From: Candidatus Binatia bacterium
Lineage (GTDB): Bacteria > Desulfobacterota > Binatia > UBA9968 > JAJDTQ01
DNA: 60,558 nt
Direction: 5' to 3'
Assembly: GCA_022823055.1 (NCBI GenBank)
Contig: JAJDXX010000050.1
Span: 1-60,558 of the forward strand
In this document: positions 7,121 through 29,622 of the stretch, piece by piece
How positions within the stretch are numbered: the stretch's first letter is position 1
How the letters are laid out: each line of letters opens with the position of its first letter
The notes under the pieces: generated by a model
What the model saw: only the letters and a program-made list of their open reading frames with translations
What the model was told of the DNA's origin: nothing
Database searches by the model: none
Translations under genes and position numbers: made by a program

Positions 7121-7141
7121 GAGGGCAATAACCCCCGAATC

Positions 7142-7439: not shown

Positions 7440-7492
7440 GTATGCGGCGCGTCGGCGCCCCTGGAGGCCGGTCCCATGAAGGGATGGAGCGC

Positions 7493-10401: not shown

Positions 10402-10414
10402 CGGAGAGTTCACC

Positions 10415-11575
10415 ATGGGCAAACCCATCGTCGCGGTGCTCGTCCTGGCGCTGCTCCTCTTCGGCGCCGCCACCTCGTTCGTGGTGGTGGACGAGAAGAG
10501 CCACGCGGTCATCACCCAGTTCGGGAAGCCCGTGTCGGTGCTGAGCGAGGCGGGCCTCTACCTCAAGCTGCCGGTGCCGTTCCAGCGGGCGAACCTCCTG
10601 GACAAGCGCATCCTGATCACCAACACGCGGGAGACGGAGCTGCTCACCGCGGACAAAAAGAACGTCCTGGTCTCCACCTACATCTCCTGGAAGATCGCCG
10701 ACCCGGTGCGTTACCTGGCGGCGCTGCGCACCCGGGACTTCGCGGAGAACCGGCTCGCCGCGCTGGTGCAGTCCGAGTTGGGCAGCGCGCTCGGCGGCCG
10801 GCCCTTCGGCACGATCCTGGGAACTTCCGGCAACGGTGCCAGCCTGGCGGAGTTGGAAGGTTCGGTAGAGCGGGCGGTGGCCGGGGTGACGCGGGAGGAC
10901 CTCGGCATCGAGGTGGTGAGCCTCGGCGTGACGCGCCTCATCTTCCCGCGACAGAACCTCGACAGTGTGTTCGCGCGCATGCGCGCCGAGCGCGCGCGCA
11001 TCGCCCGGGGGTTTCGCTCGGAGGGGCGGGCCGAGGCGCAGAAGATCGCCGCCCGCGCCGAGAAGGAACGCGCGCGCATCATCGCCGAGGCCGAGGCCAA
11101 GGCGGCCATGCTGCGGGGGCGCGGCGAGGCCGAGGCGGCGCGCATCTACGCCGAAGCCTACCAGGGGCACGCCGACTTCTATCGGTTCCTGCGCACGCTG
11201 GAAGCCTACAAGAAGGTGCTGAACGAGAAGACCACCCTGGTCCTGCCGGCGGATTCGCCGTTCCTGGAGATCCTGACCTCCAGGATTCCCGGCGCGCCGG
11301 CGGCGCCCGGGCGGAGCGGCGGCGGTGCCGCGCCCGCCGATGCCGCCGCCGCGAGCCCGGTGGCGCGGAAACCCGGGCCCGCCAATACCGCCGCGCCTCC
11401 CGAGGCCCGGAACCCCGCGCCCGCGAGTCCGGCGGACGCGAACTCCGTGTCCGCGAAGCCCGTTGCCGCAAACCCGGCGCCCGGTGGTCGGATCGCCGAT
11501 GGTCCGGTGCGGGACCCGCTGGAGCGGGATTCGGCTCCCGCGCCGCCGCCCGCGCGGCGGAGGGTGTTCCGGTGA
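10415..11575 (+). CDS. HflC-like SPFH protein with long Pro/Ala-rich C-terminal tail
   Basis: N-terminal TM, ITQFGKPV, LLTADKKNV, WKIADP, RMRAERARIA..RSEG, FYRFLRTLEAY, LPADSPF. Confidence 0.9.
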   Translation: MGKPIVAVLVLALLLFGAATSFVVVDEKSHAVITQFGKPVSVLSEAGLYLKLPVPFQRANLLDKRILITNTRETELLTADKKNVLVSTYISWKIADPVRYLAALRTRDFAENRLAALVQSELGSALGGRPFGTILGTSGNGASLAELEGSVERAVAGVTREDLGIEVVSLGVTRLIFPRQNLDSVFARMRAERARIARGFRSEGRAEAQKIAARAEKERARIIAEAEAKAAMLRGRGEAEAARIYAEAYQGHADFYRFLRTLEAYKKVLNEKTTLVLPADSPFLEILTSRIPGAPAAPGRSGGGAAPADAAAASPVARKPGPANTAAPPEARNPAPASPADANSVSAKPVAANPAPGGRIADGPVRDPLERDSAPAPPPARRRVFR

Positions 11576-12483
11576 CGGGACGCGGGCGACGGTACCCTGT
11601 GCTCCTGGGCTGTGTCGGCGTGCTCGCCGGCTGGCTCGCCCTCGGCATCTACAACGTCGAATCGGACGAGAGCGCGGTGGCCTACTTCCTCGGCAAGGCC
11701 GTGGGCCGCGACGTGCTCCCGGGCATCCACTGGAACGCGCCGTGGCCGTTGGGGCAGGTGGTGGTGGCGCGCACGGCCACGAACTTCCTCATGCCGGTGG
11801 AGCATGGGGCGGCGGCAGGCAGCGCGGCGGGCGCGTCCGAGTCCCTCTGGCTGCTGGGTGACACCAACGTCATCGTCGGCCGGCTGGGCATCCAGTACAG
11901 CATCGGCAGCCTGACGCGCTTCGAGGTGTCGCACGAGGACCCGCGGGAGCTGCTGCGCCGGGCCGGGCGCCGGATCGTGACCCGGTTCCTCGCCGGCGAG
12001 AGCGTGGACGCCGCCCTCACCACCCGCCGGAACGAGCTCCTGGACGCGGTGCAGCGGCAGGTGCAGTCGATACTCGATGATCACGGTTCTGGAATCGAGA
12101 TCCAGTCGGTGAACGTCGAGGCGCTGGCGCCGCCGGAGCAGGGAGGTGTGCGGCAGGCCTTCCAGGAGGTGCAGAGCGCGCTGGCGGACAAGGAGCGGGT
12201 GGTGGACGAGGCGCGCGCCGACCGCGCCCAGATCCTCGCGGAAGCCGAGGGGGAGTCGGAGCATCGCGTGACCCAGGCCGAGGCCGCGCGCCACCGGCGC
12301 GTGGAGATCGCCAAGGGCGAAGGCGAGCGTTTCCTCCGCCTCGCGCGGGAGCACCGCAAGACCCCCGGGCTCACCGAGGAACGGCTCTACCTGGAAACCA
12401 TCGAGGAGATCCTGCCGCGCATGGACACCTACGTGGTCCAGTCCGGCCCGGACGGCAAGGTCAACCTGCGCGTGGTCCGGTGA
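11572..12483 (+). CDS. HflK-like SPFH protein
   Basis: GTGA overlap with the previous stop; PGIHWNAPWP, LLGDTNVI, VRQAFQEV, AKGEGERF, RLYLETIEEIL. Confidence 0.87.
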   Translation: MTGRGRRYPVLLGCVGVLAGWLALGIYNVESDESAVAYFLGKAVGRDVLPGIHWNAPWPLGQVVVARTATNFLMPVEHGAAAGSAAGASESLWLLGDTNVIVGRLGIQYSIGSLTRFEVSHEDPRELLRRAGRRIVTRFLAGESVDAALTTRRNELLDAVQRQVQSILDDHGSGIEIQSVNVEALAPPEQGGVRQAFQEVQSALADKERVVDEARADRAQILAEAEGESEHRVTQAEAARHRRVEIAKGEGERFLRLAREHRKTPGLTEERLYLETIEEILPRMDTYVVQSGPDGKVNLRVVR

Positions 12484-15343: not shown

Positions 15344-15389
15344 GAACCGAGGAAGACACCGAGCCCCATTGCGGTCGAGCATGGTGATC

Positions 15390-16349
15390 ATGAATCGAAC
15401 CATGGTTGCGGCGGTTCTTCTTGCCTGTTCGTTCATCGTGCCGTCGCAGGCCCGCGCCGCGGATCGGGTCGTCGCGACATTCAAGCCGGTGCACTCACTG
15501 GTGAGCGCGGTGATGGCCGGGGTGGGTGAACCTTACCTGCTCATGCGCGGTTCCGAGTCGCCGCACACCTACCGCATGCGCCCTTCCGACGCCGGTGTCA
15601 TCGGCAAGGCCCGCGTCATCTTCATGATCGGTGAACGCACCGAGACGACGCTGGTGGGCCCCATCCGCAAGCTCGGCGGCAAGGTCCGCGTGGTGGAGCT
15701 GGCCGAAGCGCCCGCGCTGGTTCGCAGGCCGCTACGCATGGGTGGCGCTTTCGAAGACGACGGTCACGGGCATTCCCATGGTCATGGTCACAGTCACGGC
15801 CGCGGCCGCGGGCTTGGAAAGGACGACGCGTTCGACATGCACGTTTGGCTGGACCCGATAAACGCCGGGTGGATGACGCTGGCGATCGCCCGTGCCCTGT
15901 CCGAGACCGATCCGGCCAACGCCGCGAAGTACGACGCCAACGCGGATGCGCTGATCACCCGGCTGGAAGCCTTTCGGGTGGAGTTGGACACGGAGCTGGC
16001 GCCGGTGCGCAGGAAGCCCTTCATCGTGTTCCACGACGCTTATCAGTATTTCGAGAAGCGCTTCGGGCTGACCGCCGTGGGCTCGGCCGTGGTCACCGCC
16101 GGCCGGGCGCCGGGCGTCCGGCGCGTCCGTGAGCTGCGCCGCAAGGTGCGCGAGCTGGGCCTGGTATGCGTGCTCGCCGAGCCTCGCTACGATCTCCGTT
16201 TCGTGAGGCTCATCACGGAAGGCACCGACGCACGCGCCGGCACCGTCGACCCCACCGGCGCGACGATCAAACCCGGCCCCGATATGTACTTCAGCCTGCT
16301 GCGGAACATGGCCGCGTCCTTCAAGGCCTGCCTGGCACCCTCGGGCTAG
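15390..16349 (+). CDS. Second Zn ABC transporter substrate-binding protein (proteobacterial ZnuA-like)
   Basis: VVATFKPVHSLVSAVM, ESPHTYRMRPSD, HGHSHGHGHSH loop, DMHVWLDP, FHDAYQYFE; start among 15381/15390/15402. Confidence 0.9.
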   Translation: MNRTMVAAVLLACSFIVPSQARAADRVVATFKPVHSLVSAVMAGVGEPYLLMRGSESPHTYRMRPSDAGVIGKARVIFMIGERTETTLVGPIRKLGGKVRVVELAEAPALVRRPLRMGGAFEDDGHGHSHGHGHSHGRGRGLGKDDAFDMHVWLDPINAGWMTLAIARALSETDPANAAKYDANADALITRLEAFRVELDTELAPVRRKPFIVFHDAYQYFEKRFGLTAVGSAVVTAGRAPGVRRVRELRRKVRELGLVCVLAEPRYDLRFVRLITEGTDARAGTVDPTGATIKPGPDMYFSLLRNMAASFKACLAPSG

Positions 16350-16402: not shown

Positions 16403-17863
16403 TCAGGGGGTACTGCGCGACAGATCGAGGGCGAACCCTTCGTTGCGAACGCGTATGTGCGCGTAGTCCCCGCGCTTGGTGAAGCCCTCCACCAGCCGGG
16501 TCAACGGTTCGGCGTCGAAGGGGTAGTCGCGGGGCGGGCCGGCGGCGCGCATGGTGTCGATCTCCTGCCGGGTCAGGAAATAGCGCAGCAGCAGCTCCTC
16601 GTCCGACACGCCGGGGCCGCCGTACCGGGCGCGCAGTTCCTGGATGGTGGGCTCCGGCGGCTCCCACGCCGCCAGCTCCCTGGCGCGCGGACAGGCGAGG
16701 ATACGGTCCTTGACGTCGGGGTCCATGGAGTCGCTGCCTTCCCGGCCCCAGCGCCCCAGGGCGTAAAGGATCACCTGGTCGGTGATCTCCTTGTAGCGCT
16801 CGCCCACGATGATGTTGATGGCCGCCTGGCTGCCCACGAACTGGGACAGCGGCGTCACCATGATGGGATAGCCCAGTTCCTCGCGCACCCGCACCACCTC
16901 CTCCAGCGCCCGTTCCATGTGGTCGCCGAGGCCCACCCGGGCGAGCTGGTGGCGCAGGTTGGAGATCATGCCCCCCGGCACTTGGTGCAGGTACTGGCTG
17001 CAGTCGTACTCCACGGGCGCGCCGATGGGCAGCCCCTCCCGCCGAGCGGTCTCGTAGAAGTACGCGGACACCGGCCGCAGCACATCCTCGTCCACCGCGG
17101 TCTCGTAGCCCAAGCTCCGGGCGTTGGCGGCGACGTTGAACAGCGACGGGTTGGACGAGCCGTTGGCCAGGGGCGGCAGCGCGGTGTTGATGATGCGCAC
17201 CCCCTGCTTGATGGCCTCCAGGGCGCATAGCGGTCCGAGGCCGGTGGTGCAGTGGGTGTGGAACTCCAGCGGGATGTCGCCGATGTTCGCCCGGATGAGC
17301 GGCACCAGCGCGCGGGTACGGTCCGGCGTCAGGAGGCCGCCAGGGTCCTTGAAGCAGATCCGCGCCACCGGCACCGTCGCCGCTTGCCGCGCCCGCTCGG
17401 CGAAGTAGGCGTCGGTGTGCTTGGGCGATACCGAATAGATGATGTTCAGGATGGGCTCGAGCCCCGCCTCGGTGGCGATGCGCACCGTCTTGCGCCACCC
17501 CGCGACGTCGTTCCACTCGTCGGAGATGCGCCCCTGGCGGACGCCGTTGGCTGCCATGCGCTCCAGGAAGATGCGTTGGATCACTTCCGGCGTCAGCTCG
17601 AAACCGTTGCGGCTGCCGATGATGACCCGCAGCGGCGTTTCGCGGATGACCCCGGCCACCAGCCGGATACGCTCCCAAGGGTCCTCGTGCAGCTCGCGCA
17701 CACACTTCTTGATGTGCGAGCTGGACATCAGCTCCATGCCCCTGAACCCCGCCCTGTCCATGCGCTCGCCCACCGCCAGCATCATGCCCGTGCGCATGGA
17801 CTCCGCCCACAGGCTCTGGTGCCCGTCTCGCAACGTCGTGTCCACGAATTCAATGGGTTCCAT
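16403..17863 (-). CDS. Carboxyltransferase of pyruvate carboxylase subunit B / oxaloacetate decarboxylase alpha family, no biotin-carrier domain
   Basis: DTTLRDGHQS, EDPWERIR, FKDPGGLL, FHTHCTTG, HQVPGGMISNL, GYPIMVTPLSQFVGSQA; no MKM motif. Confidence 0.9.
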   Translation of the reverse strand: MEPIEFVDTTLRDGHQSLWAESMRTGMMLAVGERMDRAGFRGMELMSSSHIKKCVRELHEDPWERIRLVAGVIRETPLRVIIGSRNGFELTPEVIQRIFLERMAANGVRQGRISDEWNDVAGWRKTVRIATEAGLEPILNIIYSVSPKHTDAYFAERARQAATVPVARICFKDPGGLLTPDRTRALVPLIRANIGDIPLEFHTHCTTGLGPLCALEAIKQGVRIINTALPPLANGSSNPSLFNVAANARSLGYETAVDEDVLRPVSAYFYETARREGLPIGAPVEYDCSQYLHQVPGGMISNLRHQLARVGLGDHMERALEEVVRVREELGYPIMVTPLSQFVGSQAAINIIVGERYKEITDQVILYALGRWGREGSDSMDPDVKDRILACPRARELAAWEPPEPTIQELRARYGGPGVSDEELLLRYFLTRQEIDTMRAAGPPRDYPFDAEPLTRLVEGFTKRGDYAHIRVRNEGFALDLSRSTP

Positions 17864-17961
17864 GGGTGTTTCCTTCTCACGTCCGTCGCACCGGCACAAC
17901 CCCGCGATCGGGCGTTTCCTCCACTTGAGAGGCGGCGAGGACTAACGAAGGGGACAGGGCA

Positions 17962-18450
17962 CTAGAAGAACACGACCAGCAGGATGAGGCTGATCAGGCC
18001 GCCGAGCATGAAACACGCGGCGCTGATGGTGCCGGCCAACGTGGTGTAGTCCGCGAGGCGGAAGGTCTCGCTTTCGACCGAGAAGAGGACATTCGTGCGA
18101 TCCAGGTTGCCGTCGACGAACTGTTTCAGGCCGTTTTCCGCCCCCTGCGCCTCTTTCACGGAGACCATGGTCACGAGGATCAGGGTCAGCGCCGACATGA
18201 GGATTCCGGTTCCGAACACGACCAGGGCCAGCAGGAGAGACCAATGGTAGAACGCGCTTTCGGTCCTTGCCGCATTGCTCATGAACCCGATGATCAAGGC
18301 GCTGCCGCCCGCGTTCCCGTAGAGCAGCATGCGCCCCGACTCGGTGATGAGCCGGAACATGGTGCCGCGCCGCAGCGCAATGACCTTGTACAGCTCGCGC
18401 AACCACTCCTCGCCGACTTCTTCGGTGGAAAACTCGTCGATCCTTTTCAA
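17962..18450 (-). CDS. Small hypothetical membrane protein (about 3 TM)
   Basis: Hydrophobic segments; TTG start overlaps the stop of the upstream binding-protein gene. Confidence 0.7.
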   Translation of the reverse strand: MKRIDEFSTEEVGEEWLRELYKVIALRRGTMFRLITESGRMLLYGNAGGSALIIGFMSNAARTESAFYHWSLLLALVVFGTGILMSALTLILVTMVSVKEAQGAENGLKQFVDGNLDRTNVLFSVESETFRLADYTTLAGTISAACFMLGGLISLILLVVFF

Positions 18451-19634
18451 GGCTGCCCTCTCCCCCCGTCGATTCGCTGCCCCAAGTCGGTCAGCCTGAC
18501 GAATTTCGCTCCGACGTTCGTTCCGGGCTGGAACTCGACCGCCCAGTCATCGATGAGCACGACGCCGGAGGCCAAAGCCTGCTGCAGGAAACGCTCCCGC
18601 GTCCACTCGTCGCCCAGGCGCTCCAGCACCGTGATGACGAAGCGGCCGAGAATGTAGCCCTCCAGGGACAGTTCGTTGAACACGGGTGGAGCCGACCCCG
18701 CCTCCCGTTCGCTCGCCGCTAGAAGGGCGCGCTGATAGCTGCGGACGATCCGCCTCTTCGTGTCCGTCGGGTTCGGCATCACCTCGGTCACCAGGATCCT
18801 GTCGCTCGGCGTCTCGACTCTCTTACGCAGCTCGGAAGACAGGACAAAGGACAGGTTGCCGATGATGTAGTCGTGCCCCAGGCCGTTCGCCAGGTTGATG
18901 ATCTCCGCGTTGGCCGCGTAAGGCCCGACGATCAGAATGGCGTCGAGATCGGCCTTCGCCAGGATGAAGAGGCCCGCGTGGACGGCATGCGTATTGCGCG
19001 AAAAGGCCGATTTCGCGAGGATGTGAAGTCCGTGTTCCCTGAGCACGGTCTGGTAGTTCTTCAGGACCGAGCGCCCGAAGGCGTCGTCCTGGTAGAGGAT
19101 GCCGAAGCGCTTCTTGCCGCGTTTGCGAACGACGTGGTCCACCATCGCGCGGAGTTCCTGGAGGTAGCTCGCCCTCAGATTGACCACGTGCGGATTCCGC
19201 TTGAAGTCCCCCAGGAAGTCGGCGCCCGTGATGTGGCCCACGAAGGGGATGCCGGCCGCTCGCAGCACCGGCACGATGCGCTTCGCCGTCGGCGTCCCCA
19301 CCCCGCCGATGACCGCGAGCACATCGTCCTTGGAAGCGAATCTCTCCGCGTTCGCCGCCGCCATCTCCGGCTCATAGCCGTCATCGAGCGAGATCAGCTC
19401 CAGGGACCTCCCGTTGACTCCTCCCTTGGCGTTGCGTTCCCCGAACGCCGCGAGGAGGCCCGCGCGATAGTGGATTCCCAACTGCCTGTTGGGCCCGGAG
19501 AAACAGGCGCTTTGCCCGAAAACGACCGCTTTCGCATGGACTCCGGGGGCGGCCGCCGAGACGCCCGGAGCCAGCAAGCATCCGAACACCAGCAGCGACA
19601 ACCATCGAAACGCGCGGGACGCCCGGTCCGTCAT
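18447..19634 (-). CDS. Periplasmic binding protein, LivJ/branched-chain amino acid (type 1) family
   Basis: Signal peptide, FGQSACFSGP, GGVNGRSLELISLDDGYEP, GGVGTPT, LRASY, YQDDAFG, SLEGYI. Confidence 0.9.
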   Translation of the reverse strand: MTDRASRAFRWLSLLVFGCLLAPGVSAAAPGVHAKAVVFGQSACFSGPNRQLGIHYRAGLLAAFGERNAKGGVNGRSLELISLDDGYEPEMAAANAERFASKDDVLAVIGGVGTPTAKRIVPVLRAAGIPFVGHITGADFLGDFKRNPHVVNLRASYLQELRAMVDHVVRKRGKKRFGILYQDDAFGRSVLKNYQTVLREHGLHILAKSAFSRNTHAVHAGLFILAKADLDAILIVGPYAANAEIINLANGLGHDYIIGNLSFVLSSELRKRVETPSDRILVTEVMPNPTDTKRRIVRSYQRALLAASEREAGSAPPVFNELSLEGYILGRFVITVLERLGDEWTRERFLQQALASGVVLIDDWAVEFQPGTNVGAKFVRLTDLGQRIDGGRGQP

Positions 19635-19638
19635 GGCT

Positions 19639-20928
19639 TCAGTTCCCTCCGTGTTGCCCGCGGCCCGGGCCGTCGTTGAGCGTCTTCTCCACCATCGACC
19701 TCAGATTCGCCTGCTGGGCGGCGCTGCGGCGGCGGGAACCGCCGTGACGATGGGAAAAGATCGAGGGCGTGTCGAATATGAGCGACCGGGGATTGGCCTC
19801 CCTCGTGTGGTCACGCTCGGCTCGCGGGCTGTGGAAGCGGCCCTCGATCAACGGCTTGTCGGCCGTGACGCTCTCCAGGGCATGCACGTTCAGCGGCATG
19901 GTCGATCTCGACAGCCGCTCGCCGGGAGCGGCGGGTGAAGGCGGGGTGTGCGCCGCGACCGCCGTCGGGGGGACTCCCGCGGCGCCGTCGATCATGTTGA
20001 TGTCGATGTTCGACGCCTCGCCCGGGTTGACGACCGACAGGCTCGCCTCGGCGAAGATCGTGCGCATCCGTTGCCAGTAGCGTGTGATGGCAACCTGGTT
20101 CGGGTTTTTCCTGTATTCGGCCAGCAGGTCCGTGAAGACCTTCGCGCTGCTGCGCGCCTGGACGAGCCGCGTCCGGGCGCTCGCCCTGGCGTCCGTCACC
20201 AGCGCTTCGGCCTGCCCCTTGCTGCGCGCAAGCAGTTGCTCTCTCTTGCGATTCGCCACGCTCGCGACTTCTTCCCGCTCCGCGATGGCGTCGTTGACGT
20301 CCCGGAACGCCTGGAGCGTCTCCTGGATCGGGCGCACGTCGACGATGTTGAGCGAGACGATCTCCAGACCGAAATCCAGCGCTTCGAGGCGCTTGACCAC
20401 GTCTTCGAGCAGATGTTGTTGAATGACGTCGCGATTCGAGGTGAAGATCAGGTCGATGAAGTTCTGCCCGAGGATATTGATCAGTTCCTCGCGAACGAAC
20501 GCGGTGAGCAGCGAGACGGGGTCGGCGGACGCGAACAGGTACGCCCTCAGGTTGTCGATCTTGTACTGGATGGCGACGTCGGCCTCGATGAGGTTGGTGT
20601 CTCCGGTCAGGATGGTGAAGTTCGCCTGATTGCCTTTCGTGCTCGACACCTCATGCCCGAGGATCCGTTTGACCTTTCGAATATGCATCCGCTCGACGAG
20701 CGGAACGGCGTAGCCCAGCCCCGGACCGACCTGCGCATCGACCACTTTCCCGAAACGGGTGCGTACGCCCTGCTCCTCTTTCTTGACGACGTAGAAGCCG
20801 GTGAGCAGGTAGCCGAAAACGGCGATGGCGACAAGGATCCAGAGGATCGTCTTGTAGCGCCCCTCGAGGAAGTCGAAGGCGGCGTAAATGGCCCGCGTGC
20901 TCGGAGGCAGGGAGTGTGCTTCGCTCAT
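19639..20928 (-). CDS. HflK-like SPFH protein (copy 2) with ~110-aa C-terminal extension
   Basis: TM, GFYVVKKEEQGVRTRFGK, LTGDTNLI, IQYKI, AFRDVNDA, EYRKNP. Confidence 0.88.
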   Translation of the reverse strand: MSEAHSLPPSTRAIYAAFDFLEGRYKTILWILVAIAVFGYLLTGFYVVKKEEQGVRTRFGKVVDAQVGPGLGYAVPLVERMHIRKVKRILGHEVSSTKGNQANFTILTGDTNLIEADVAIQYKIDNLRAYLFASADPVSLLTAFVREELINILGQNFIDLIFTSNRDVIQQHLLEDVVKRLEALDFGLEIVSLNIVDVRPIQETLQAFRDVNDAIAEREEVASVANRKREQLLARSKGQAEALVTDARASARTRLVQARSSAKVFTDLLAEYRKNPNQVAITRYWQRMRTIFAEASLSVVNPGEASNIDINMIDGAAGVPPTAVAAHTPPSPAAPGERLSRSTMPLNVHALESVTADKPLIEGRFHSPRAERDHTREANPRSLIFDTPSIFSHRHGGSRRRSAAQQANLRSMVEKTLNDGPGRGQHGGN

Positions 20929-20942
20929 CGGATGAATCCGCC

Positions 20943-21836
20943 CTACCGAGGTATTTCCTTGCTGTCGAGATACTTGAACAGCTCGTTGTCCGCGGGCAGC
21001 ATGAGGGTCGTGTTCCCGTCGATGATCCGGTCATAGCTGTCGAGCGCACGGAGGAATTTGTAGAACTCCGGGTCCTCCTCGTAGGCCTTGCCGAGCAGCG
21101 CCATCGCCTCGGCTTCCGCCTTTCCGAGAATGGCGGTGGCCTCGGCGTGGGCTTCGGCGATGATCTTCTCGTGCTCGTTGATGGCCCGGGCCTCGATGCG
21201 GATCGCCATCTCCTCGCCCTCGCTGCGATAGCGCGCGGCGATGCGGGCGCGTTCGGAGATCATCCGTTGGATCACGCTCGGCCGGTTCGACACCGGCAAG
21301 GTGTACTCGACGATTCCCGTCCGCAGCACGTCGATGCCGTAGTCCTTCTTCGCGACCGGAGCGATGAGCTCCTGAATCTTGTTGGCGGCCGCGGTCAGAT
21401 TCTCGTGCTCCAACCCCAGGCTGATGAAGGCGTCCTGGGCCTCGTTGCTGATGACGATGCCGCTGCTCGACATGTAGAGGTCCTTGAGTCGCTGGATGGC
21501 GTTCTGGCCGGTCCGGATCGCCTCGACGTAGAGGATGGGGTCCCGGACGCGCCACAGCAGATATCCGTCGACATGAACGCTCTTCTGGTCCTCCGTGATC
21601 AGTTCCTGTGTCAGCCCGGTCATGGCGTGAATGCGCCGGTCCACCTTGTATATCCTGGATATGGGCCGGGGCCATTTCAGGTGGAGTCCGGGTTGCCTGA
21701 CGGGAGGCGATATCTTCCCGAAGTGGGTCAACACGCCCTGCTGCGTCTCGTCGACGATGTAGAAGGAATCGTACGCTATGACGAGCAGGATGATCGCGGC
21801 AATGGATGCGGCGATTTTCCTTGATCTCGAGGTCAT
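20943..21836 (-). CDS. HflC-like SPFH protein (copy 2)
   Basis: SFYIVDETQQGVLTHFGK, LITEDQKSV, WRVRDP, RMISERARIAARYRSEG, DPEFYKFLRALDSY, LFKYL. Confidence 0.92.
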   Translation of the reverse strand: MTSRSRKIAASIAAIILLVIAYDSFYIVDETQQGVLTHFGKISPPVRQPGLHLKWPRPISRIYKVDRRIHAMTGLTQELITEDQKSVHVDGYLLWRVRDPILYVEAIRTGQNAIQRLKDLYMSSSGIVISNEAQDAFISLGLEHENLTAAANKIQELIAPVAKKDYGIDVLRTGIVEYTLPVSNRPSVIQRMISERARIAARYRSEGEEMAIRIEARAINEHEKIIAEAHAEATAILGKAEAEAMALLGKAYEEDPEFYKFLRALDSYDRIIDGNTTLMLPADNELFKYLDSKEIPR

Positions 21837-24337
21837 TTCGCTTCTCCCCGCTTCTCCCCCGATTTCTCCGTCTGCTCAGGGCTCGCGGTCCTTTTGCCTT
21901 GGGCGCCGGCGAGTTTTCGGGGTTCTTCCGGCTTTCCCTTGGCGCTGCTCTGTTCGCCATGGTTCGGAGGGTTGGCCGGGCTCTTGGCGGATTCTTCGGG
22001 TCTTTTCTCCCCGGCAGCCCCGTTGCGATGGTTCATGCCGTCGGCCGCTCCGTTCTTCCCGTGCGCCGGACGCATGTGTCCGCTACCCGCCGGCGATTTC
22101 CTCTTCCACAGCGCGACCTTTCCGAGGCTGTCCTGGTTGGGAACGATGATCTTCGGATTGCGGGAAAGCGCGATTTCCAGCTTCTCGCGCCACAGCATGT
22201 TCCGAAGCACGTCCGGCGAGACCTGCATGGCCTTCGCCACCCTCCGGATCGCATCGGCTTCCGCGCCCGATGTCGCCACCCGCGAATACGCCCGGCCGTC
22301 GGCCTGCTTCACCTCGTAGTCGGCATTGCCGTGCGCCTGGGGAATCATCGACACCAGGAGCCGCTGCGCGTTGACGATGATCCTCTCCTTGTCCTCCTGC
22401 GCGGTGGACACCTCGCGGAATGCGCTTGTGGTCTCGGCCACGGGGCGGATCTCCGACAGGCTCACCTTGACCAGCTCGACACTCTCGAACACCGAGGGTC
22501 CCGCGTCCTGTGCTGGATCCTTCCCCGTGAACAAGCCGCCGACGTGCCCTTCGAGGGTCCCGCGATGGACGGTGAGCAACTGCTCCAGGGGTCTGGCGGA
22601 TACGAAGGAACGCACATGGTCCCGGACAGCGTCCCGGATGAGGCTCGGCGCGTCGATGATCCGGTAGTGGTAGGTGTACGGGTCTTTCACTCGATATTGC
22701 ACGTTGACGGTGAGGGAGACGAGGTTCAGGTCGCCGGCCACGAATTCGCGTGATTCCCCGCCCATCATGGACTTCACTTCCCGGACCGGCCATTTGTCGA
22801 TCCGGGCGAAGGGCGGGGGAGCGAGGTAGTGCAGCCCCGGCTGCAGATCCTTCCAGTAGACCTTGCCGAAAAGGCGGCCGTAGCCGACCGAGCCCGGGGG
22901 CACGACCGCGAAACCGTTGGCGAGGTAGACGGCGACGATCAGGGCGAGGACCATCATGCCCAGAGGCGTCTTGGGGGAGATGGCGCCCAGCGCGGGGCGG
23001 CCCCGGCTCAGTCGCGTCCACGTCCGCACCAAGGGTTCGGACATGTTGCGGACGTTTTTCGTCAAATCCGACCAGCCGGTTCGCAGGGCGCCGGCGCGGA
23101 ACCGCCAGACGACCAGGGAGATGAAGGCGAAGGTGCTCACGTACTGGAAGAACAGGATGTTCGGCGAAGTCGAGGCGCTCAGGTTCAAGGGCAGCGTCAG
23201 GGCGGCGGCGGCCAACAGGACGTCCACGAGGATGGCCACGAGGACGGTCACCACGATGACCACGGTGACGTAGATGGACGCGAAGCGCGTGCCGAACTGG
23301 TGCATGATGACCGCGATGGTTCCCGAATTCGTGGCCGGCCCCGTCATGAGAAAGATCAGCGCCGCTCCCGGACTGAAGCCCTTGGCCACCAGCGCGGCGG
23401 CGATGGGCGTGCTTGCGGAGGCGCAAATGTAAAGCGGGACGCCGATCAGGACCATGATCGGGTAGGCCGCCCACTGGGCGTATTCGTTGTCCATCAGGGT
23501 GTCGGGAATCGCCAGATAGAGCAGTCCTCCCACGGCGACGCCGAAGAGCAGCGAGAACAGGATGTCGTCGGCGATCTCCACGAAACCGTGGTGAAAGATG
23601 TGCCTGACGATGGTCTTGAAGCTGGGCAGGTTGTATCCCGCGGGGAGTTCGACGTCTGGAGTGTCCTGCGGCTCTTCCTCGGCCGCCATTTCCTCGCGAT
23701 AGAACTCAGGCTTGACCCAGAAGGTGATCCTCCGGTTGGCAACCTTCGCCAGGAGCGTCCTGAGGCCGTAGCCCATGGCAATCTTCAGTTGTGAAGGGCT
23801 GATGCAGCAGTCGTCTTCGCTTGGAATGAGATGTTCGTGCGGGCCGTGATCGTGGTCATGGTCGTGATCGTGGCTGCCGTCGTGCTCTTCCTTCAGAATA
23901 CCGCCGTCGCCTCTGATGAGACCGATGCAGAAAATGCCGGCCACGACCGCGGTGATGAAGCTGATGACGGGCCGGACGATCGCCGCCACCCATCCGAAGA
24001 AGGCGTTGGTGACGAGAATCGAATCCGCTCCCGTTTCGGGAGCGGTGATCAGGAAAGACATGCAGGAAGAGCGGGAGGCACCCTTCCGCCGCATCTCGGT
24101 GACCACCGGCACCACCGAGCAACTGCAAAGCGGCACGGGCACGCCGACGGCCGCGCTGACGCTGACCGACTTCAGACTGTCGTCACGAAGCCACCGGAAA
24201 ACCGCCTGGCGGGATATGAATACGTGAAACAGTCCCGAGAGGAACAGCCCGAGCAGGAGCATGGGCGACAACAGAAGCAGCGACATCCACAGAAAGTGGA
24301 AGAAATCGACCAGCAGGCTCCACAATTGAACAGACAT
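21833..24337 (-). CDS. ArsP/DUF318 permease fused to HflK-like SPFH domain, copy 2
   Basis: GVPVPLCSCSVVP, APETGADS, His-rich loop, GVPLYICASASTP, GPATN; then TM + VVPPGSVGYGRLFGK, PGLHY, AGDLNLV, VQYRVKDP, AFREV; ATGA overlap with the hflC-like gene. Confidence 0.9.
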   Translation of the reverse strand: MSVQLWSLLVDFFHFLWMSLLLLSPMLLLGLFLSGLFHVFISRQAVFRWLRDDSLKSVSVSAAVGVPVPLCSCSVVPVVTEMRRKGASRSSCMSFLITAPETGADSILVTNAFFGWVAAIVRPVISFITAVVAGIFCIGLIRGDGGILKEEHDGSHDHDHDHDHGPHEHLIPSEDDCCISPSQLKIAMGYGLRTLLAKVANRRITFWVKPEFYREEMAAEEEPQDTPDVELPAGYNLPSFKTIVRHIFHHGFVEIADDILFSLLFGVAVGGLLYLAIPDTLMDNEYAQWAAYPIMVLIGVPLYICASASTPIAAALVAKGFSPGAALIFLMTGPATNSGTIAVIMHQFGTRFASIYVTVVIVVTVLVAILVDVLLAAAALTLPLNLSASTSPNILFFQYVSTFAFISLVVWRFRAGALRTGWSDLTKNVRNMSEPLVRTWTRLSRGRPALGAISPKTPLGMMVLALIVAVYLANGFAVVPPGSVGYGRLFGKVYWKDLQPGLHYLAPPPFARIDKWPVREVKSMMGGESREFVAGDLNLVSLTVNVQYRVKDPYTYHYRIIDAPSLIRDAVRDHVRSFVSARPLEQLLTVHRGTLEGHVGGLFTGKDPAQDAGPSVFESVELVKVSLSEIRPVAETTSAFREVSTAQEDKERIIVNAQRLLVSMIPQAHGNADYEVKQADGRAYSRVATSGAEADAIRRVAKAMQVSPDVLRNMLWREKLEIALSRNPKIIVPNQDSLGKVALWKRKSPAGSGHMRPAHGKNGAADGMNHRNGAAGEKRPEESAKSPANPPNHGEQSSAKGKPEEPRKLAGAQGKRTASPEQTEKSGEKRGEAK

Positions 24338-24399
24338 TCTGAATTACCAGTTCTTATTCGACGACACCGGCACTCTCGATAGACAAGGGCTATTGCGAA

Positions 24400-24530
24400 C
24401 TCATGGAAGACAAGAATATAATCAATATTGATATTGGAAAATTGATATCGAAAAACTATGTTAAATTCTCTTCTGGTTTTTGCCGGAAAACTACATTAAG
24501 TTCTTTTTTTGGTTTTGACAAGCATATTCA
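24400..24530. promoter_or_regulatory. AT-rich divergent promoter region with palindrome ATCAATATTGAT and an imperfect ~30-bp direct repeat
   Basis: Palindrome 24421-24432; AAAACTATGTTAAATTCTCTTCTGGTTTT (24452-24480) vs AAAACTACATTAAGTTCTTTTTTTGGTTTT (24487-24516); TTGACA at 24515-24520. Confidence 0.6.
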
Positions 24531-24587
24531 TCGCTTTGAGGAGAACGTTTCAACGGTACACCTACAGTACAAGGTCGGGGGAATTGC

Positions 24588-25757
24588 ATGAACGGCAAGC
24601 GAGAGAGCCAAGAGGGTGCTGAATCATCCGAAGCGCGGACTCCCCTTGTCGCCTGGTGCGTCGTCGCCGTGATGATCTACCTGCTGCTGCTGGCGGTCGA
24701 TCTGATCAACCACGGCTTCAAACAAGCGACCGGCGGCGCCGAAAGCGCCCAGGCGCTGTTCGCCTTCGCCACGAACCCGTTCATGGGCGTCCTGCTGGGC
24801 GGCCTGGTCACGGCGCTCGTACAATCGTCGAGCACCGTCACGTCGATCATCGTCGGAATGGTGGCGGGAGGGTTGCCCGTCTCGGTCGCAATTCCCATGG
24901 TGATGGGCGCCAACCTCGGCACGACGATCACCAACACCCTGGTCAGCTTCGGTCATGTCGGCAACCGTGACGAGTTCCGGCGCGCGTTCGCGGCGGCCAC
25001 CGTGCACGATGGGTTCAATCTCCTGAGCATTCTTATCTTCTTGCCGCTGGAGATGGCGTTCGGCCTTCTGGAACGCCTGAGCGGCGCCCTCGTAGGTCTG
25101 GCGAAGCAGTTCGGCTCCCACGATTTGGGGGGGCTGGACTTCGTGGAAGCCGTGGTGGAACCGGTAAGCGATCTCATCGAAATTCTTGTGTCTCCCCTTC
25201 CGGGACCTTGGGCCGGCGTCGCGTTGATCGTCCTGGGCGTCGCTCTCATCCTGGTGGCGATCATCCGGCTGAGCGCCGCGCTCAGGACGGTGATGGTCGG
25301 AAAGGCGAATCAGCTCCTGCACACGGCGGTCGGGCGGGGACCCATCTCGGGCATCGTGTCCGGGACGGTGGTGACCGTAGTGGTGCAATCCTCCTCGACG
25401 ACCACCAGCCTGATGGTGCCCCTGGCCGGCAGCGGCGTGTTTCGATTGGGTGAAGTGTATCCGTTCACTCTCGGCGCCAACATCGGCACCACCATCACGG
25501 CGCTGCTGGCCGCGACGGTGACCGCGAGCGGCAGCCTCGAGACCGCTCTCCAAATCGCACTGGCGCACTTTCTCTACAACCTGCTGGGTGTCGTGTTGAT
25601 CTACGGGATACCCTGGCTGCGGACGCTGCCGATGCTGGGGGCGGAGTGGCTCGCCCGCGTAGGGAGCGAGCGCAAGGGGCTGGCGATCGCCTATACCCTC
25701 GGGATGTTCTTCGTCGTTCCGGGCGTTCTCGCTTTTGTCGGCACGCAGTTGTTTTGA
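24588..25757 (+). CDS. nptA: Na+/phosphate cotransporter (NptA/SLC34-like)
   Basis: Two QSSS motifs (VQSSSTVTS; VQSSSTTTS), GANLGTT/GANIGTT, AATVHDGFN. Confidence 0.92.
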   Translation: MNGKRESQEGAESSEARTPLVAWCVVAVMIYLLLLAVDLINHGFKQATGGAESAQALFAFATNPFMGVLLGGLVTALVQSSSTVTSIIVGMVAGGLPVSVAIPMVMGANLGTTITNTLVSFGHVGNRDEFRRAFAAATVHDGFNLLSILIFLPLEMAFGLLERLSGALVGLAKQFGSHDLGGLDFVEAVVEPVSDLIEILVSPLPGPWAGVALIVLGVALILVAIIRLSAALRTVMVGKANQLLHTAVGRGPISGIVSGTVVTVVVQSSSTTTSLMVPLAGSGVFRLGEVYPFTLGANIGTTITALLAATVTASGSLETALQIALAHFLYNLLGVVLIYGIPWLRTLPMLGAEWLARVGSERKGLAIAYTLGMFFVVPGVLAFVGTQLF

Positions 25758-25803
25758 GACGGGGAATTGTTCGTGGTCGTAACCGGGAAGGTGCCCTGAG
25801 AAA

Positions 25804-28026
25804 ATGCGCTGGATACGAACGAATCCGTCCGTCGGCTGGCTCCTCGCGGGATGCGGGGTGCTGGCCGCGGGGGTCGCTCTCTTCCTCCTGCTGTCGGTGG
25901 AAGCCGGTCTCGCGCTATGCCTGGTCGGCGCCGGCGCGCTCGGTTGCGCGGGGGGTCTCACGCGCTCCGCGGTCGCGGACCGGCGGCTCGTCGCGGCGAT
26001 CGAGCAGCATATCGACGAACGGCGCGGGCGCGAGCTGAGAGAAGCGGAGAGGCGCTGGCTCGCCGAGGGCGTCTCGCCCGTGGAGCAGAACTGGCAGGCG
26101 CTCCAGCCGTCACCGGATGCCGAGACCGAAGAGACCCTGGCGGAACTGGACGTGCGGCTCGGAAAACTGATCCAGGCCCGCTGCGACCGCGTCTGGGACG
26201 GCATCCGCGACCGGCGCTACGTGAAGCAGGAGCACGGAGAGATCGGCGGCCTCGACGGGCGCGCCATTCTGGATGAACTCCGCGGCGTGGTGCAGGAAGT
26301 CGCGCGCCTGTACGGGAAGGACGCCGAAAAGGCGGAACTCGATGCGCGCGTCGGCGACGTCGCCCTCGCCGCGCGTTCCGCCATAGCCGAACTCCTGCAA
26401 GTGGCCGGGCAGGCGCCGGTGGTCAACGTGGCCGGTCTGACGGTCAGGGAAATCGTGACGCGGCTGGAACAGGTGCAGACGGTGCGCAACCTCTACCGCA
26501 GGCTGACGCCATACCAGCATTACATACAGGGCGCGACACTGGCCGCGCGCATCGCCATGGGCGTGAACCCCGTCACGTTTGCGGCGTCGACGCTCGGCTG
26601 GGAGGTGTCCAAGCAGGTGGGCAAACACGTCCTCAAGCGCTACGCCGAGGGCTGGATGAAGGAGTTGCTGGAGGGTTCCGTCGCGCTGGTCTACCTGCAT
26701 GTGGCGCGCGCCTACGATCCGCGCCGCACGTACCGGAGCGCTGACTGGCTGGCGCTCGTCGAGGCGCTGCGCATTCACAACCTGGTCCCGGGCGTGGACC
26801 ACAACCGCAAGCTCCTGATGGACCGCATCCTGCGGGCGCCGACCCCGGACGAGTTCGCCAAGCTGACGCTGCTGCGCGCGCGGGCCGGCGACGGCGAACC
26901 GGACGCCAGGCTGACGCCGCCCGACGACCTTGCGTCCCTGCGCCCCGCGCAACGGCAGGCCGTGGCGGCGTGTCTGGGCGGGGTCCTGCGGGACATGCGC
27001 GGTTTGAACGAGCCGCGGGCCAGCGCCGCCATCGAGGAACTGGAGAAACGGCTGTCGATGGGTCTGCAGGTCGATCTGATCGACGCCGGCAGCCGCGAGG
27101 AGATGCGCATCGAGGAGGGGTTCGCGCAACTTGCGATGCTTGCCCGCGACTGGTGCCGGCTCGACATCGACGAAGCGCGGCAGGCCATCAAGGCTAGCCC
27201 GCTGGCCGCGGCCGCGGGCAAGCAGACCGGGGACGCCGGCATGAATCGCGCGCTGTTGGAGAAGGCGCTGTCCATGGCGTTCGACGACTGCGCGTCCGGG
27301 GCGGGCCGCGTGGGAGAAAGCGAACAGCACCTGATCGAGCCCTCGCGCGATCTGGTCGGAGACCCACTGGCCGAGCCGCTGCTCGCGTCCTTCGTCGATC
27401 TGCTGGCGGCGAAGGCCGCGGCGGATTGGCCGCTGGAACACGACCACATGGTGCTGCTCAACGCTTCGGTGCTGCTCCTGGAGACCAGGCAGGTCAACAC
27501 GCTTTGGTCGCGGTACCTGACGGCCGTGGAATCGCGGCTGCGCGGCCGCCTGGAGCACGCGAAGCCGTCAACCGTCCCGACGGGGTCGGCGCCGGCCATC
27601 CTGCGGCAGATCGGCCAGCGGGAACCCGCGCCGCCGCCAGTCATCCTGCAGCAGATCGGCGACCTGGAACCCGCAATGCCGTCGGGGCGAGGCGCCGCCG
27701 CGGCCGCTCGCAACCGGGCCGTTGCCGTGTTCGAAGCGTCGTCCGGCAACTCGCGGGCGCACTGGGTGCTCCTGTGTGCCGACCGCGTCGTCGTGGGGGA
27801 CGTTCCCAAGGAAGCGCTCTCGCTGGACGACGGCGAGCCGGAAACCTGGCCGAGAGGCGAGGTCCGCTTCAGCCGTGAGTCACGTACCTTGGCGGATGCA
27901 CTCGTGATCCATTGCGGCGGCAAGCAGCGTCTGACCGTCGAAGGTTCCGTGACGAGCACGTTTGCCGCGTACTTCGGTCCCATGCTCGAATCGCTGGGCC
28001 TCGACGCTGCCCTCGACAACGCCTGA
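25804..28026 (+). CDS. Large hypothetical protein with two N-terminal TM segments
   Basis: 740-aa ORF with gene-like codon bias filling the gap between identified genes; no family recognised; 15-aa tandem duplication at ~27592-27681. Confidence 0.7.
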   Translation: MRWIRTNPSVGWLLAGCGVLAAGVALFLLLSVEAGLALCLVGAGALGCAGGLTRSAVADRRLVAAIEQHIDERRGRELREAERRWLAEGVSPVEQNWQALQPSPDAETEETLAELDVRLGKLIQARCDRVWDGIRDRRYVKQEHGEIGGLDGRAILDELRGVVQEVARLYGKDAEKAELDARVGDVALAARSAIAELLQVAGQAPVVNVAGLTVREIVTRLEQVQTVRNLYRRLTPYQHYIQGATLAARIAMGVNPVTFAASTLGWEVSKQVGKHVLKRYAEGWMKELLEGSVALVYLHVARAYDPRRTYRSADWLALVEALRIHNLVPGVDHNRKLLMDRILRAPTPDEFAKLTLLRARAGDGEPDARLTPPDDLASLRPAQRQAVAACLGGVLRDMRGLNEPRASAAIEELEKRLSMGLQVDLIDAGSREEMRIEEGFAQLAMLARDWCRLDIDEARQAIKASPLAAAAGKQTGDAGMNRALLEKALSMAFDDCASGAGRVGESEQHLIEPSRDLVGDPLAEPLLASFVDLLAAKAAADWPLEHDHMVLLNASVLLLETRQVNTLWSRYLTAVESRLRGRLEHAKPSTVPTGSAPAILRQIGQREPAPPPVILQQIGDLEPAMPSGRGAAAAARNRAVAVFEASSGNSRAHWVLLCADRVVVGDVPKEALSLDDGEPETWPRGEVRFSRESRTLADALVIHCGGKQRLTVEGSVTSTFAAYFGPMLESLGLDAALDNA

Positions 28027-28155
28027 ACGAAAAGGAGCGGAGGAACCCGGCGGCGACAAGGTCATCTTCTGGAAGCAACTCTGAGGACTGGCACGGTCGA
28101 TTCGGGCGACCGAATGGTTAGAACGGGCACAACGCCCCCTTTGCCGAACCGCGCG

Positions 28156-29622
28156 TCATGCCCGCGGGGTTTCCGTAGCGGCGTAGCGGCCGGCGACGCG
28201 GCCGAAGGCCAGCACCTCGGTGAGGTTGCCGGCGCCGGGGTAGTTCTGGGACCACATGGAGCCCAGCTCGCCGGCGCTGTAAAGGCCCGGGATGGGGCGG
28301 CCCCAGGCGTTCAGCACCTGGGCGCGGGCGTTGCGCCGGGGGCCGCCCTGGGTGTTGAACAGGCTCGGCCACAGGGCGGCGCCGTAGAACGGAGGGCGCT
28401 CCAACGGTCGCAACGTGTCGGGAGATCGTCCGAAGGCTCCATCCCGGCCCTCGGCGCATGCCCGGTTGTATTCGTCCACGGTCCGTTCCAGCGCCGCCGC
28501 GTCCAGGCCGAGATCGGCCGCCAGCGCAGCCGGGGTGTCGCCCCTCTTGATCCAGCCCTTCCCCACCTCGGCGGCGTTGTCGTCGCTCCAGCGGTAGTGC
28601 TCGGCCACGGCGCCCCGGCCGGTGTTCGCCACCGGGCCGGCCGCTCGGGTCTCCTCGTCGAAGATCACGAAGCAGGGGACGCGCGACCGCTCCATGGTCT
28701 CCAGGTCCAGCTCGGTCACCAGCGAACCCTCGGCGTGGGCGTCCATGGCGGTCTCGTCCACGAAGCGGCGTGCCTGCCGGTCCACGTAGATGAAACCGGG
28801 GCCGGGCATGGCGTGGATGACGGCGCCGTCGAAGCCGTCCACGAGGTAGCCGAATCCCGCGGCCACGGCGTTCATGTGCCATAGGGAGGCGCCCACATCC
28901 GCCGCCAGCTGGATGCCGTCGCCGGTGTGGCTGGAGGCGCCCAGGGACCAGTACCGCTGTCCCAGGAACTGGAGTTGCATGTCCGGGCTCCATTCAAAGC
29001 CGCCGCAGGCGAGGATCACAGCCTTGCGCGCCTGGATGACGATCTCCTCGCCGCCCCGGCGCGCAGTCAGCCCGGTGACCGCGCCGTCGCCGTCCCGCAG
29101 CAGCCGCACCGCCGGGCACTCGAACAGCACCGGGATGCAGCGCTCGTCCACGTTCCGGTCCAGAAGCTCCCACAGGTCGCGGCCGTTGGCGGTGGTCTCG
29201 CCCTTGACCCGGAGCCGGGGGCCGACGCCGTCGGCGCCGGGCTGCTCGGGCGAGGCCGCGCCGGTGGGGTAGACGGGATAGCTCGCGGGGGCGGCCTGGA
29301 GCGGGTCCACGGCCACCTCGCCGCCGAGGGACCGCAGCCAAGGCTCGTTGTCGTGGCTCTCGCGCACCAGGGTTTCGATGACGTCCGGGCCGGTGGCACC
29401 GCCGCACAGGAAGGTGATGTGCTCCACGGCGCGCTCCAGCGCGCCGAAGGTGCGCACCGAGCCGGCGGAGAGGCGTGTGTTGCCGCCGCCCGCGGCGGCC
29501 TTCTCCACGATCAGCACCTTGGCGCCGAGGTCGGCGGCGGTGATGGCCGCGGTGGCGCCCGCGCCGCCGTAGCCCACCACGGCCACGTCGGTCTCGCGCG
29601 ACGACACCATGGCCTTGCTCAT
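28156..29622 (-). CDS. FAD-dependent oxidoreductase (fumarate reductase flavoprotein / 3-ketosteroid dehydrogenase / TcuA-like)
   Basis: VVGYGGAG, EK..GGNT, VILACGGFE, TGDG, NTQGGP, IPGLYSAGE, GNL...FGRVAG. Confidence 0.9.
   Translation of the reverse strand: MSKAMVSSRETDVAVVGYGGAGATAAITAADLGAKVLIVEKAAAGGGNTRLSAGSVRTFGALERAVEHITFLCGGATGPDVIETLVRESHDNEPWLRSLGGEVAVDPLQAAPASYPVYPTGAASPEQPGADGVGPRLRVKGETTANGRDLWELLDRNVDERCIPVLFECPAVRLLRDGDGAVTGLTARRGGEEIVIQARKAVILACGGFEWSPDMQLQFLGQRYWSLGASSHTGDGIQLAADVGASLWHMNAVAAGFGYLVDGFDGAVIHAMPGPGFIYVDRQARRFVDETAMDAHAEGSLVTELDLETMERSRVPCFVIFDEETRAAGPVANTGRGAVAEHYRWSDDNAAEVGKGWIKRGDTPAALAADLGLDAAALERTVDEYNRACAEGRDGAFGRSPDTLRPLERPPFYGAALWPSLFNTQGGPRRNARAQVLNAWGRPIPGLYSAGELGSMWSQNYPGAGNLTEVLAFGRVAGRYAATETPRA

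Follow-up and report, generated by a model that had tools for sequence, protein, structure and literature searches.

Since their clients are mostly unknown or transient, it is an open question how bacterial assemblies of SPFH proteins (HflK/HflC, flotillin and stomatin) affect the membrane proteins within them. HflK and HflC, together with FtsH, represent the SPFH cage architecture. The TRAP (DctPQM) and TTT (TctABC) systems have no ABC ATPase; each couples a large secondary permease with a small membrane protein and a binding protein that is secreted. In the available text of one study, the stomatin dome is described as enclosing aquaporin-1 (AQP1) as well as UT-B, a transporter of urea (PMC12407830). 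As far as the available text of another study goes, the permease SO_0444 is needed under ZnSO4 or CuCl2 stress, is encoded alongside a ZntR-like regulator and was assigned as an efflux protein (PMC3219624), and a CSC motif in a transmembrane segment has been described for its family (bioRxiv 10.1101/2022.07.06.499078). The subject here is a five-gene cassette at 17962-24337, on the minus strand of a 60,558-nucleotide (nt) stretch of DNA (hereafter the window; contig JAJDXX010000050.1 of assembly GCA_022823055.1, Candidatus Binatia bacterium), in which a permease of the SO_0444 type is fused to an SPFH domain and is encoded with two further SPFH proteins, a secreted binding protein and a small membrane protein. 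Taken singly, the parts belong or nearly belong to known families, and their combination was not found in print; a literature search that did not cover subscription journals returned no paper describing the five-gene cassette or the fusion of an ArsP/SO_0444 permease with an SPFH domain.

The five open reading frames (ORFs) of the cassette are tightly coupled, and all have a coding-type GC content at third codon positions (0.83-0.88). The first gene (21833-24337) encodes the permease-SPFH fusion of 834 amino acids (aa), with ArsP_1 and Band_7 domains. It is followed by genes for an HflC-like protein (20943-21836; 297 aa) and an HflK-like protein (19639-20928; 429 aa), each with a Band_7 domain, for a secreted type I binding protein of the Peripla_BP_6 family (18447-19634; 395 aa), and for a small inner-membrane protein of no family (17962-18450; 162 aa). 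Read from the fusion to the fifth gene, the junctions are an ATGA overlap, 14 nt, 4 nt and a TTGA overlap, which is exactly what had been claimed in an earlier note made from the sequence alone (the original prediction). The claimed order of fusion, hflC and hflK was likewise confirmed by NCBIfam scoring, since the second gene matches HflC best and both the third gene and the SPFH part of the fusion match HflK best. Contigs from metatranscriptome (RNA) libraries span all four junctions, most pieces being 95-99% identical to the window; those of run X1 cover 17909-19484, 19544-20990 and 20967-21966, and similar pieces occur in runs X2 and X4. This is weak evidence, as DNA may be present in such libraries, and the gaps in cover seen in some runs carry no evidential weight.

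The five genes form a single conserved unit. When one genome per species was scanned, 421 loci encoding relatives emerged, and the best 80 of the 421, all of them records of metagenome-assembled genomes (MAGs), were retrieved. By the submitters' titles, which name no phylum for 10 of the 80, these loci come from at least 10 phyla, with 30 from Pseudomonadota, 18 from Latescibacterota, 6 from Acidobacteriota, 4 each from Verrucomicrobiota and Gemmatimonadota, and the rest from others. When searched by tblastn with the five window proteins, all 80 had identical gene order and strand. The fusion was present in 80, the HflC-like gene in 79, the HflK-like gene in 78, the binding-protein gene in 77 and the small gene in 75. 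Contig ends account for the missing HflK-like, binding-protein and small genes (L037, L039, L056, L059 and L068), so that the small gene was found in 75 of 75 loci of sufficient length; the one missing HflC-like gene belongs to locus L105, described below. Outside the genus of the window, identity to the window proteins is 53-67% for the fusion, 62-85% for the HflC-like protein, 45-66% for the HflK-like protein, 44-71% for the binding protein and 53-87% for the small protein. Spacing is conserved as well. The median distance is -4 nt both between fusion and HflC-like gene and between binding-protein and small gene; all 47 measurable gaps from the HflC-like to the HflK-like gene are 21 nt or less; and the binding-protein stop overlaps the small-gene start in 45 of 75 loci, the two lying within 30 nt of each other in 73.

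It had been proposed to test whether the two last genes co-occur with the fusion elsewhere, and they do, in every retrieved locus that reaches far enough (77 and 75 loci, respectively). The outcome named in advance as refuting, in which these genes never accompany the module and are transcribed separately, is contradicted by the loci, by the tight spacing and, weakly, by the RNA contigs that bridge the junctions. It could be argued that the binding-protein and small genes are unrelated neighbours merely travelling with the SPFH module. This is very improbable, for both genes stand in the same order in all 75 long-enough loci from at least 10 phyla, their start and stop codons overlap, and relatives of the small protein were found only as a gene of this cassette, with a single copy in the window genome. 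The divergence of the five proteins is also correlated, their pairwise identities co-varying with r of 0.83-0.94 across 71 loci, a pattern that points to shared history and not to binding.

The fusion protein matches ArsP_1 in Pfam at residues 12-371 (E 5.7e-44) and Band_7 at residues 478-658 (E 5.1e-14). Its permease domain, of the SO_0444/ArsP_1 family, comprises residues 1-415 (23093-24337), with about nine hydrophobic segments by hydropathy. Against NF033936, the model of SO_0444 family Cu/Zn efflux transporters, it scored 301.0 bits, marginally above the cut-off of 300. The CSC motif that characterizes this family is present in the second hydrophobic segment as Cys71-Ser72-Cys73 (PLCSCSVVP; 24119-24127) and is invariant in all 72 aligned orthologues. 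A central hydrophilic loop (residues 149-250; 23588-23893) carries the His/Asp run HDGSHDHDHDHDHGPHEH and contains 11 His and 20 Asp/Glu; in the same 72-sequence alignment, D176-C177, W207/P210/F212/Y213 and several His of this loop are invariant columns. If all nine permease segments span the membrane (4+4+1), the His-rich loop is periplasmic; if the segments with CSC and CAS are re-entrant, it is cytoplasmic.

The permease domain is followed by a basic linker and an HflK-type transmembrane helix (residues 416-484; 22886-23092), delimited by hydropathy and charge count (8 Lys/Arg). The linker is 37 residues long and precedes this helix, the tenth of the protein. The remainder (residues 485-834 and the stop codon; 21833-22885) comprises an HflK-like SPFH domain, a coiled-coil and a low-complexity Lys/Glu/Pro tail. 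With 120.1 bits against TIGR01933 (HflK), under the cut-off of 159.4, the SPFH part is HflK-like and not an equivalog. The original prediction that the fusion is real was upheld, its frame being open in 71 further orthologues. A protein-cluster search gave 548 relatives of the fusion, and among the matches listed, 116 of 120 carry both PF03773 and PF01145 and nearly all are 57-98% identical. One locus in an Opitutales MAG (L105:7983-10250) has a stop inside the fusion linker, where the ORF ends at 9332, and is without a separate HflC-like gene; the remaining four genes and a ZIP gene are retained. It is either a variant, a decaying copy or a sequencing error.

The HflC-like protein scored 166.1 bits against TIGR01932 (HflC), above the cut-off of 134.4. 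It has an N-terminal transmembrane helix and is the best-conserved product of the cassette. The HflK-like protein reached 147.9 bits against TIGR01933, under the same cut-off as above, and is again HflK-like rather than an equivalog. It has a conserved C-terminal extension of 120 residues, and the conservation profile places the motif RSLIFDTPSIFSH in it, within residues ~365-395 (19744-19836). The motif is strongly conserved in proteins of this type and could act as a docking peptide. The HflC-like and HflK-like proteins both have basic N-termini followed by one helix, as do HflK and HflC. From this arrangement, and from the basic linker before the tenth helix of the fusion, the three SPFH domains are expected on the periplasmic side, where the binding protein also resides. 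No FtsH-like family was found among the neighbour clusters common to at least 9 of the 80 loci, and the cassette thus lacks the genomic association with FtsH. The window genome (G000) contains 11 Band_7/SPFH domains, six of them within the window and three more on contigs C184, C115 and C17; the housekeeping HflK/HflC may be represented by two neighbouring SPFH genes on contig C88 (4867-6344).

The binding protein matches Peripla_BP_6 with an E value of 3.7e-45 and 155.5 bits, well over the gathering cut-off of 31.7. A signal peptide covers about residues 1-28, and 46 orthologues have Sec-type signals without a conserved lipobox. R154, Y157, Q182, D184, H216, S262, E325 and Y327 are invariant positions of this protein. 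Its AF2 model has a type I two-lobe fold (pLDDT 88.2). Foldseek returned at least 500 matches in the PDB at E <=0.001, the best being 4kv7 (TM 0.80, E 1.3e-31, 32% identity), which was also found by profile search (E 2.1e-63); the nearest structures are 4kv7 from Rhodopirellula baltica, 3lop from Ralstonia solanacearum and 4m88 from Verminephrobacter eiseniae. Against the LivJ equivalog PRK15404 the protein scored 40 bits, far under the cut-off of 477. No Liv-type ABC permease or ATPase was present in the neighbour families common to at least 9 of the 80 loci, the ABC genes nearby being of the Znu type (ABC-3). The binding protein is therefore an orphan, without Liv-type ABC partners in the conserved neighbourhood.

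The small protein consists of three long helices in its AF2 model (residues 9-59, 66-112 and 127-161; pLDDT 72), and its mean column identity among 48 orthologues is 73%. Invariant acidic and basic residues, with one Trp, mark the N-terminal helix (E10, E11, E15, W16, R18, E19, K22, R27 and R28), and E100, E105, R118 and D134 are also conserved. From the charge distribution, the soluble stretches are predicted to be cytoplasmic, with almost nothing in the periplasm. In the window the gene starts with a TTG that overlaps the stop of the binding-protein gene. The aligned first codon is TTG in 46, GTG in 23 and ATG in only 6 of the 75 loci, and this non-ATG start in 69 of 75 speaks for translational coupling of the small gene to the binding-protein gene. 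No family was found for the protein in Pfam (48 members, best E 0.028) or NCBIfam. A profile search of 1.84 billion proteins gave only 39 representatives, many of them fragments and none indicating a known family, the ESM Atlas gave only clusters of 'hypothetical protein', and Foldseek gave no matches in the PDB at E <=0.001. The idea that the small protein is a diverged permease half was prompted by a 239-aa protein (P0148) that matched both the small protein and the permease. It was rejected, the profile-profile comparison with the fusion giving a probability of 1.3%. P0148 is the product of a deletion through the cassette in some metagenome: its permease portion, which extends from the His loop as far as the second CAS segment, leads directly into the small protein's C-terminal third.

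These features of the small protein bear on a model in which it and the binding protein form a sensor for an amino acid or small organic ligand, which, without carrying substrate, turns the permease or the SPFH assembly on or off. Conserved residues in the cleft loops of the binding protein, the predicted cytoplasmic position of the small protein's conserved charged helices, which would suit a signal relay, and a start codon suggestive of low, coupled dose all agree with such gating. It is nevertheless improbable, given that the small protein has no recognizable output domain and that no conserved regulator gene lies nearby.

A second set of such genes, copy 1, is found on the plus strand of the window at 8221-12483, with a gene order identical to that of the cassette (copy 2). 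The fusions of the two copies are 30% identical (E 2e-85), the HflC-like proteins 37% and the HflK-like proteins 27%. These identities of 27-37% uphold the earlier statement that the copies are very divergent and support the view that they are old paralogues and not the result of a recent duplication. The fusion of copy 1 scored 359.6 bits against NF033936; on rescoring in the genome, the values were 362 bits for copy 1 and 303.5 bits for copy 2. In a FastTree tree, copy 1 is placed on a very long branch (3.48), outside the shallow family of copy 2, and its HflK-like protein is without the motif noted above. The distance of about 7 kb claimed between the copies holds between the nearest SPFH genes (7.2 kb), but from the last SPFH gene of copy 1 to position 17962 it is 5.5 kb. 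It is also true, as had been claimed, that both copies adjoin binding proteins. The parallel is misleading, however: the ZnuA beside copy 1 has its own ABC ATPase and permease and needs no link to the fusion. In all 12 same-genus loci examined, copy 1 stands in the order sco1 - fusion - HflC - HflK - znuA - znuC - znuB.

Several further observations concern copy 1 and its surroundings. Its central loop (8677-8850; residues 153-210) has 3 Cys, 11 Asp/Glu and 3 His in 58 residues. Since this loop is Cys/Asp-rich and that of copy 2 His/Asp-rich, the two copies may prefer different metals. A SCO1/SenC gene (7442-8116) precedes the fusion of copy 1, and upstream of it, at 7100-7460, a palindromic, GC-rich element, GTCATTCCCGCG...CGCGGGAATGAC, recurs several times and resembles a REP-type repeat. 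The Znu region that follows copy 1 (15369-16349; same-genus loci L116-L127) is variable within the genus. In 6 of the 12 loci (L116, L117, L119, L121 and L127, possibly others with a znuA copy beyond), the second znuA is preceded by an additional znuB-znuC pair, which is divergent (30-34% identity) and inverted; the window has only the second znuA.

The neighbours within 8 kb of the 80 cassettes were grouped into families by all-against-all clustering of ORFs and named by Pfam and NCBIfam. A ZIP transporter gene was found in 43 loci, in 39 of them directly downstream on the same strand, and Znu-type genes were also common (ZnuA in 19, ABC-3 permease in 18 and ABC ATPase in 25 of 80). Efflux genes were represented by RND in 21, MFP in 21 and OMF in 14 loci, with any of the three in 27. 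The theme of the neighbourhood is homeostasis of zinc-class metals, with importers as the commonest company. Six clusters (c27, c30, c31, c32, c36 and c38) were discarded as shadow ORFs, since all or nearly all of their members run antisense to RND or Znu genes; cluster c35, whose representative has no Pfam family, lies antisense over such genes in 8 of 13 members. From the match to NF033936, the invariant CSC motif, the His/Asp loop, the ZIP and Znu neighbours and the position of copy 1 in line with znuA-znuC-znuB, we infer that the cassette handles a divalent metal of the zinc class.

For the cassette we tentatively prefer, with rather less than even confidence, a role in metal acquisition that is assisted by the binding protein and takes place at an HflK/C-like ring in the periplasm. 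Judging from their families, the three SPFH proteins (the C-terminal half of the fusion, the HflC-like and the HflK-like protein) would form a ring of the HflK/HflC type on the periplasmic face, and the CSC permease would be permanently tethered to it through the basic cytoplasmic linker and the HflK-type transmembrane helix. Two dedicated accessory subunits would complete the unit, namely the secreted binding protein of type I and the membrane protein with its three helices. The former would capture its ligand in the periplasm, be it a metal or a small chelator of metals (an amino acid, for example), and serve the tethered permease. The latter would more probably adapt or regulate the permease from the membrane and the cytoplasmic side than dock the binding protein, because its conserved soluble parts are predicted to face the cytoplasm.

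Several points weigh against acquisition. SO_0444, the sole experimentally studied relative of the permease, is the efflux protein introduced above (available text of PMC3219624), and ArsP and SaoE are likewise described as exporters (in the available text of PMC7176098 and of bioRxiv 10.1101/2022.07.06.499078). In 27 of the 80 loci, RND efflux genes are found no more than 8 kb away, and in the window neither a ZIP nor a Znu gene belongs to the cassette. The binding protein could not be given a ligand, its nearest structures 4kv7, 3lop and 4m88 being listed with none named, and the sole cysteine of its cleft loops, C44, is replaced in about 10 of 46 orthologues. The His-rich loop of the permease could face either side of the membrane, and a single transcript is not proven by the RNA contigs. 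The original prediction had the binding protein deliver a substrate, perhaps a metal-ligand complex, to the permease. Such delivery is a proposal, given the unassigned ligand and the efflux assignment of the characterized relative. A complex prediction for permease residues 1-415, the small protein and binding-protein residues 29-390, made with matched alignments, gave a score of 0.00 against a mark of 0.32 in a run without controls, which speaks neither for nor against an association.

Efflux or detoxification is a possible, though doubtful, alternative to metal acquisition. The permease would export Zn/Cu-class ions to the periplasm, the SPFH ring would organize or stabilize it, and the binding protein would be an acceptor, buffer or sensor for the exported ions there. 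Membership in NF033936 with its CSC motif, the stress phenotype and regulator of SO_0444 (again from the available text of PMC3219624) and the RND, MFP and OMF genes that adjoin the cassette in 27 of 80 loci all favour export. The family as such does not fix the direction of transport, because ArsP is reported to be a distant relative of the NiCoT family (available text of PMC7176098). Importer genes are nevertheless the commonest neighbours of the cassette (ZIP in 43 and Znu genes in 18-25 of 80 loci), and, with copy 1 in line with znuACB in 12 of 12 loci, export would mean that an exporter is tied to a high-affinity importer. In the systems familiar to us, the periplasmic binding proteins found in transport operons serve importers or sensors. 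It is this, together with the importer neighbours, that leads us to prefer acquisition over efflux.

Genomes of the same genus reveal how the cassette reached its present site. Among 24 other genomes, full-length orthologues of copy 2 (89-96% identity) occur in four (G008, G015, G017 and G022), and orthologues of copy 1 in 14. In all six genomes without copy 2, an oadA-like gene abuts the gene for a flavin adenine dinucleotide (FAD) oxidoreductase (28156-29622 in the window). The DNA homology to each of these six relatives ends at 17862-17886 and restarts at 28178-28187, and GC content is 0.61-0.65 inside this interval as against 0.68-0.71 beside it. Because the six relatives show an empty site at the matching position, some 10.3 kb (17887-28177) have been gained. 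The cassette was therefore acquired by insertion, as a block, in this lineage; the binding-protein and small genes were absent from all nine same-genus loci without copy 2. No direct or inverted flanking repeats of note were found at the ends of the insertion, and no tRNA in the window. Of the plasmid records in PLSDB, 49 match the HflK-like part only, and none covers 80% of the fusion. On a wider scale, the FastTree tree, a quick one, needs 14 changes of phylum label, as taken from the submitters' titles, against a minimum of 9, with Arenicellales placed among Latescibacterota and Gemmatimonadota, and Bryobacterales beside Alphaproteobacteria. This pattern, and the 55-67% identity seen across phyla, fit repeated transfer.

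Besides the cassette, the insertion carries two genes on the plus strand. The first (24588-25757) is divergent from the cassette and encodes a Na/Pi cotransporter (Na_Pi_cotrans; NF037997). The second is an ORF of 740 aa (25804-28026) with an N-terminal hydrophobic region and no match in Pfam or NCBIfam; it contains a 45-nt tandem repeat at 27587-27676 and has a 69% homologue elsewhere in the genome G006. PiT carriers move metal-phosphate complexes. Phosphate-type genes also accompany the cassette in other loci, 10 of the 80 having a Na/Pi cotransporter and 9 a PiT-like permease (L040-L043, L082, L086, L091, L097, L098, L106 and others), and a phosphate link is possible. The AT-rich region between the fusion and the cotransporter gene (24338-24587) is, by its sequence, a probable promoter region. 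A palindrome within it (24418-24435) occurs once in the window, where 0.01 occurrences are expected, and its core CAATATCAATATTG is also found upstream in two other loci (L036 and L037). It may serve as an operator between the two genes. It was not found upstream of copy 1, and no operator shared across phyla was detected upstream of the fusion, the best 8-mer occurring in 12 of 81 upstream regions and no palindrome being common to them.

Compared with the SO_0444 family (NF033936; TC 2.A.119; PF03773), the permease of the cassette is alike in its score above the cut-off, its CSC motif and a hydropathy that fits 4+4 transmembrane segments and an extra C-terminal peak (available text of PMC7176098). 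It differs in that family members stand alone (the model has 351 positions), whereas the cassette permease has a His/Asp loop of 102 residues and is fused to an SPFH domain. The cassette further adds two SPFH partners, a binding protein and a small membrane protein, and the efflux phenotype is that of SO_0444 itself only. With the HflK/HflC-FtsH system of Escherichia coli, the cassette shares adjacent, coupled genes and proteins with a single N-terminal helix each, one of them HflC-like and two HflK-like. However, it has three SPFH proteins, one of which bears a whole transporter at its N-terminus, and ftsH is not among its conserved neighbours. The stomatin dome, as depicted in the available text of PMC12407830, is similarly an SPFH oligomer specifically associated with membrane transporters, but its eukaryotic clients are separate proteins and the dome is cytoplasmic, whereas the cassette has its client covalently fused and its SPFH domains, by prediction, in the periplasm. 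With a client fused to its scaffold and accessory proteins encoded alongside, the cassette offers a defined set for structure determination and transport assays. The comparison with the empty site in the genus adds that the unit is gained as a block.

As to the binding protein, its best matches in sequence and fold (4kv7, 3lop and 4m88) assign no ligand, and the cassette does not belong to the LIV-type ABC importers (LivJ with LivHMGF). Its gene content resembles that of the TRAP and TTT systems in kind only. There is no homology, the cassette being composed of a Peripla_BP_6 protein, an ArsP-type permease and a three-helix small protein without a family, and it is a member of neither group. 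To our knowledge, no other ArsP/SO_0444-type permease has its own secreted binding protein, and the cassette would be the first, a point of relevance to the uptake or disposal of zinc-class metals by uncultivated bacteria from many phyla. In the boldest reading, which we regard as a rather long shot, the binding-protein-dependent secondary transporters would comprise, besides TRAP and TTT, the cassette as a third and independent kind. A metal permease of the ArsP/TOG fold would here be covalently tethered to a dedicated three-component HflK/HflC-like periplasmic ring, loading or unloading of the permease by the binding protein would take place in the space bounded by the ring, and the whole would spread between phyla as a ready-made metal-acquisition unit.

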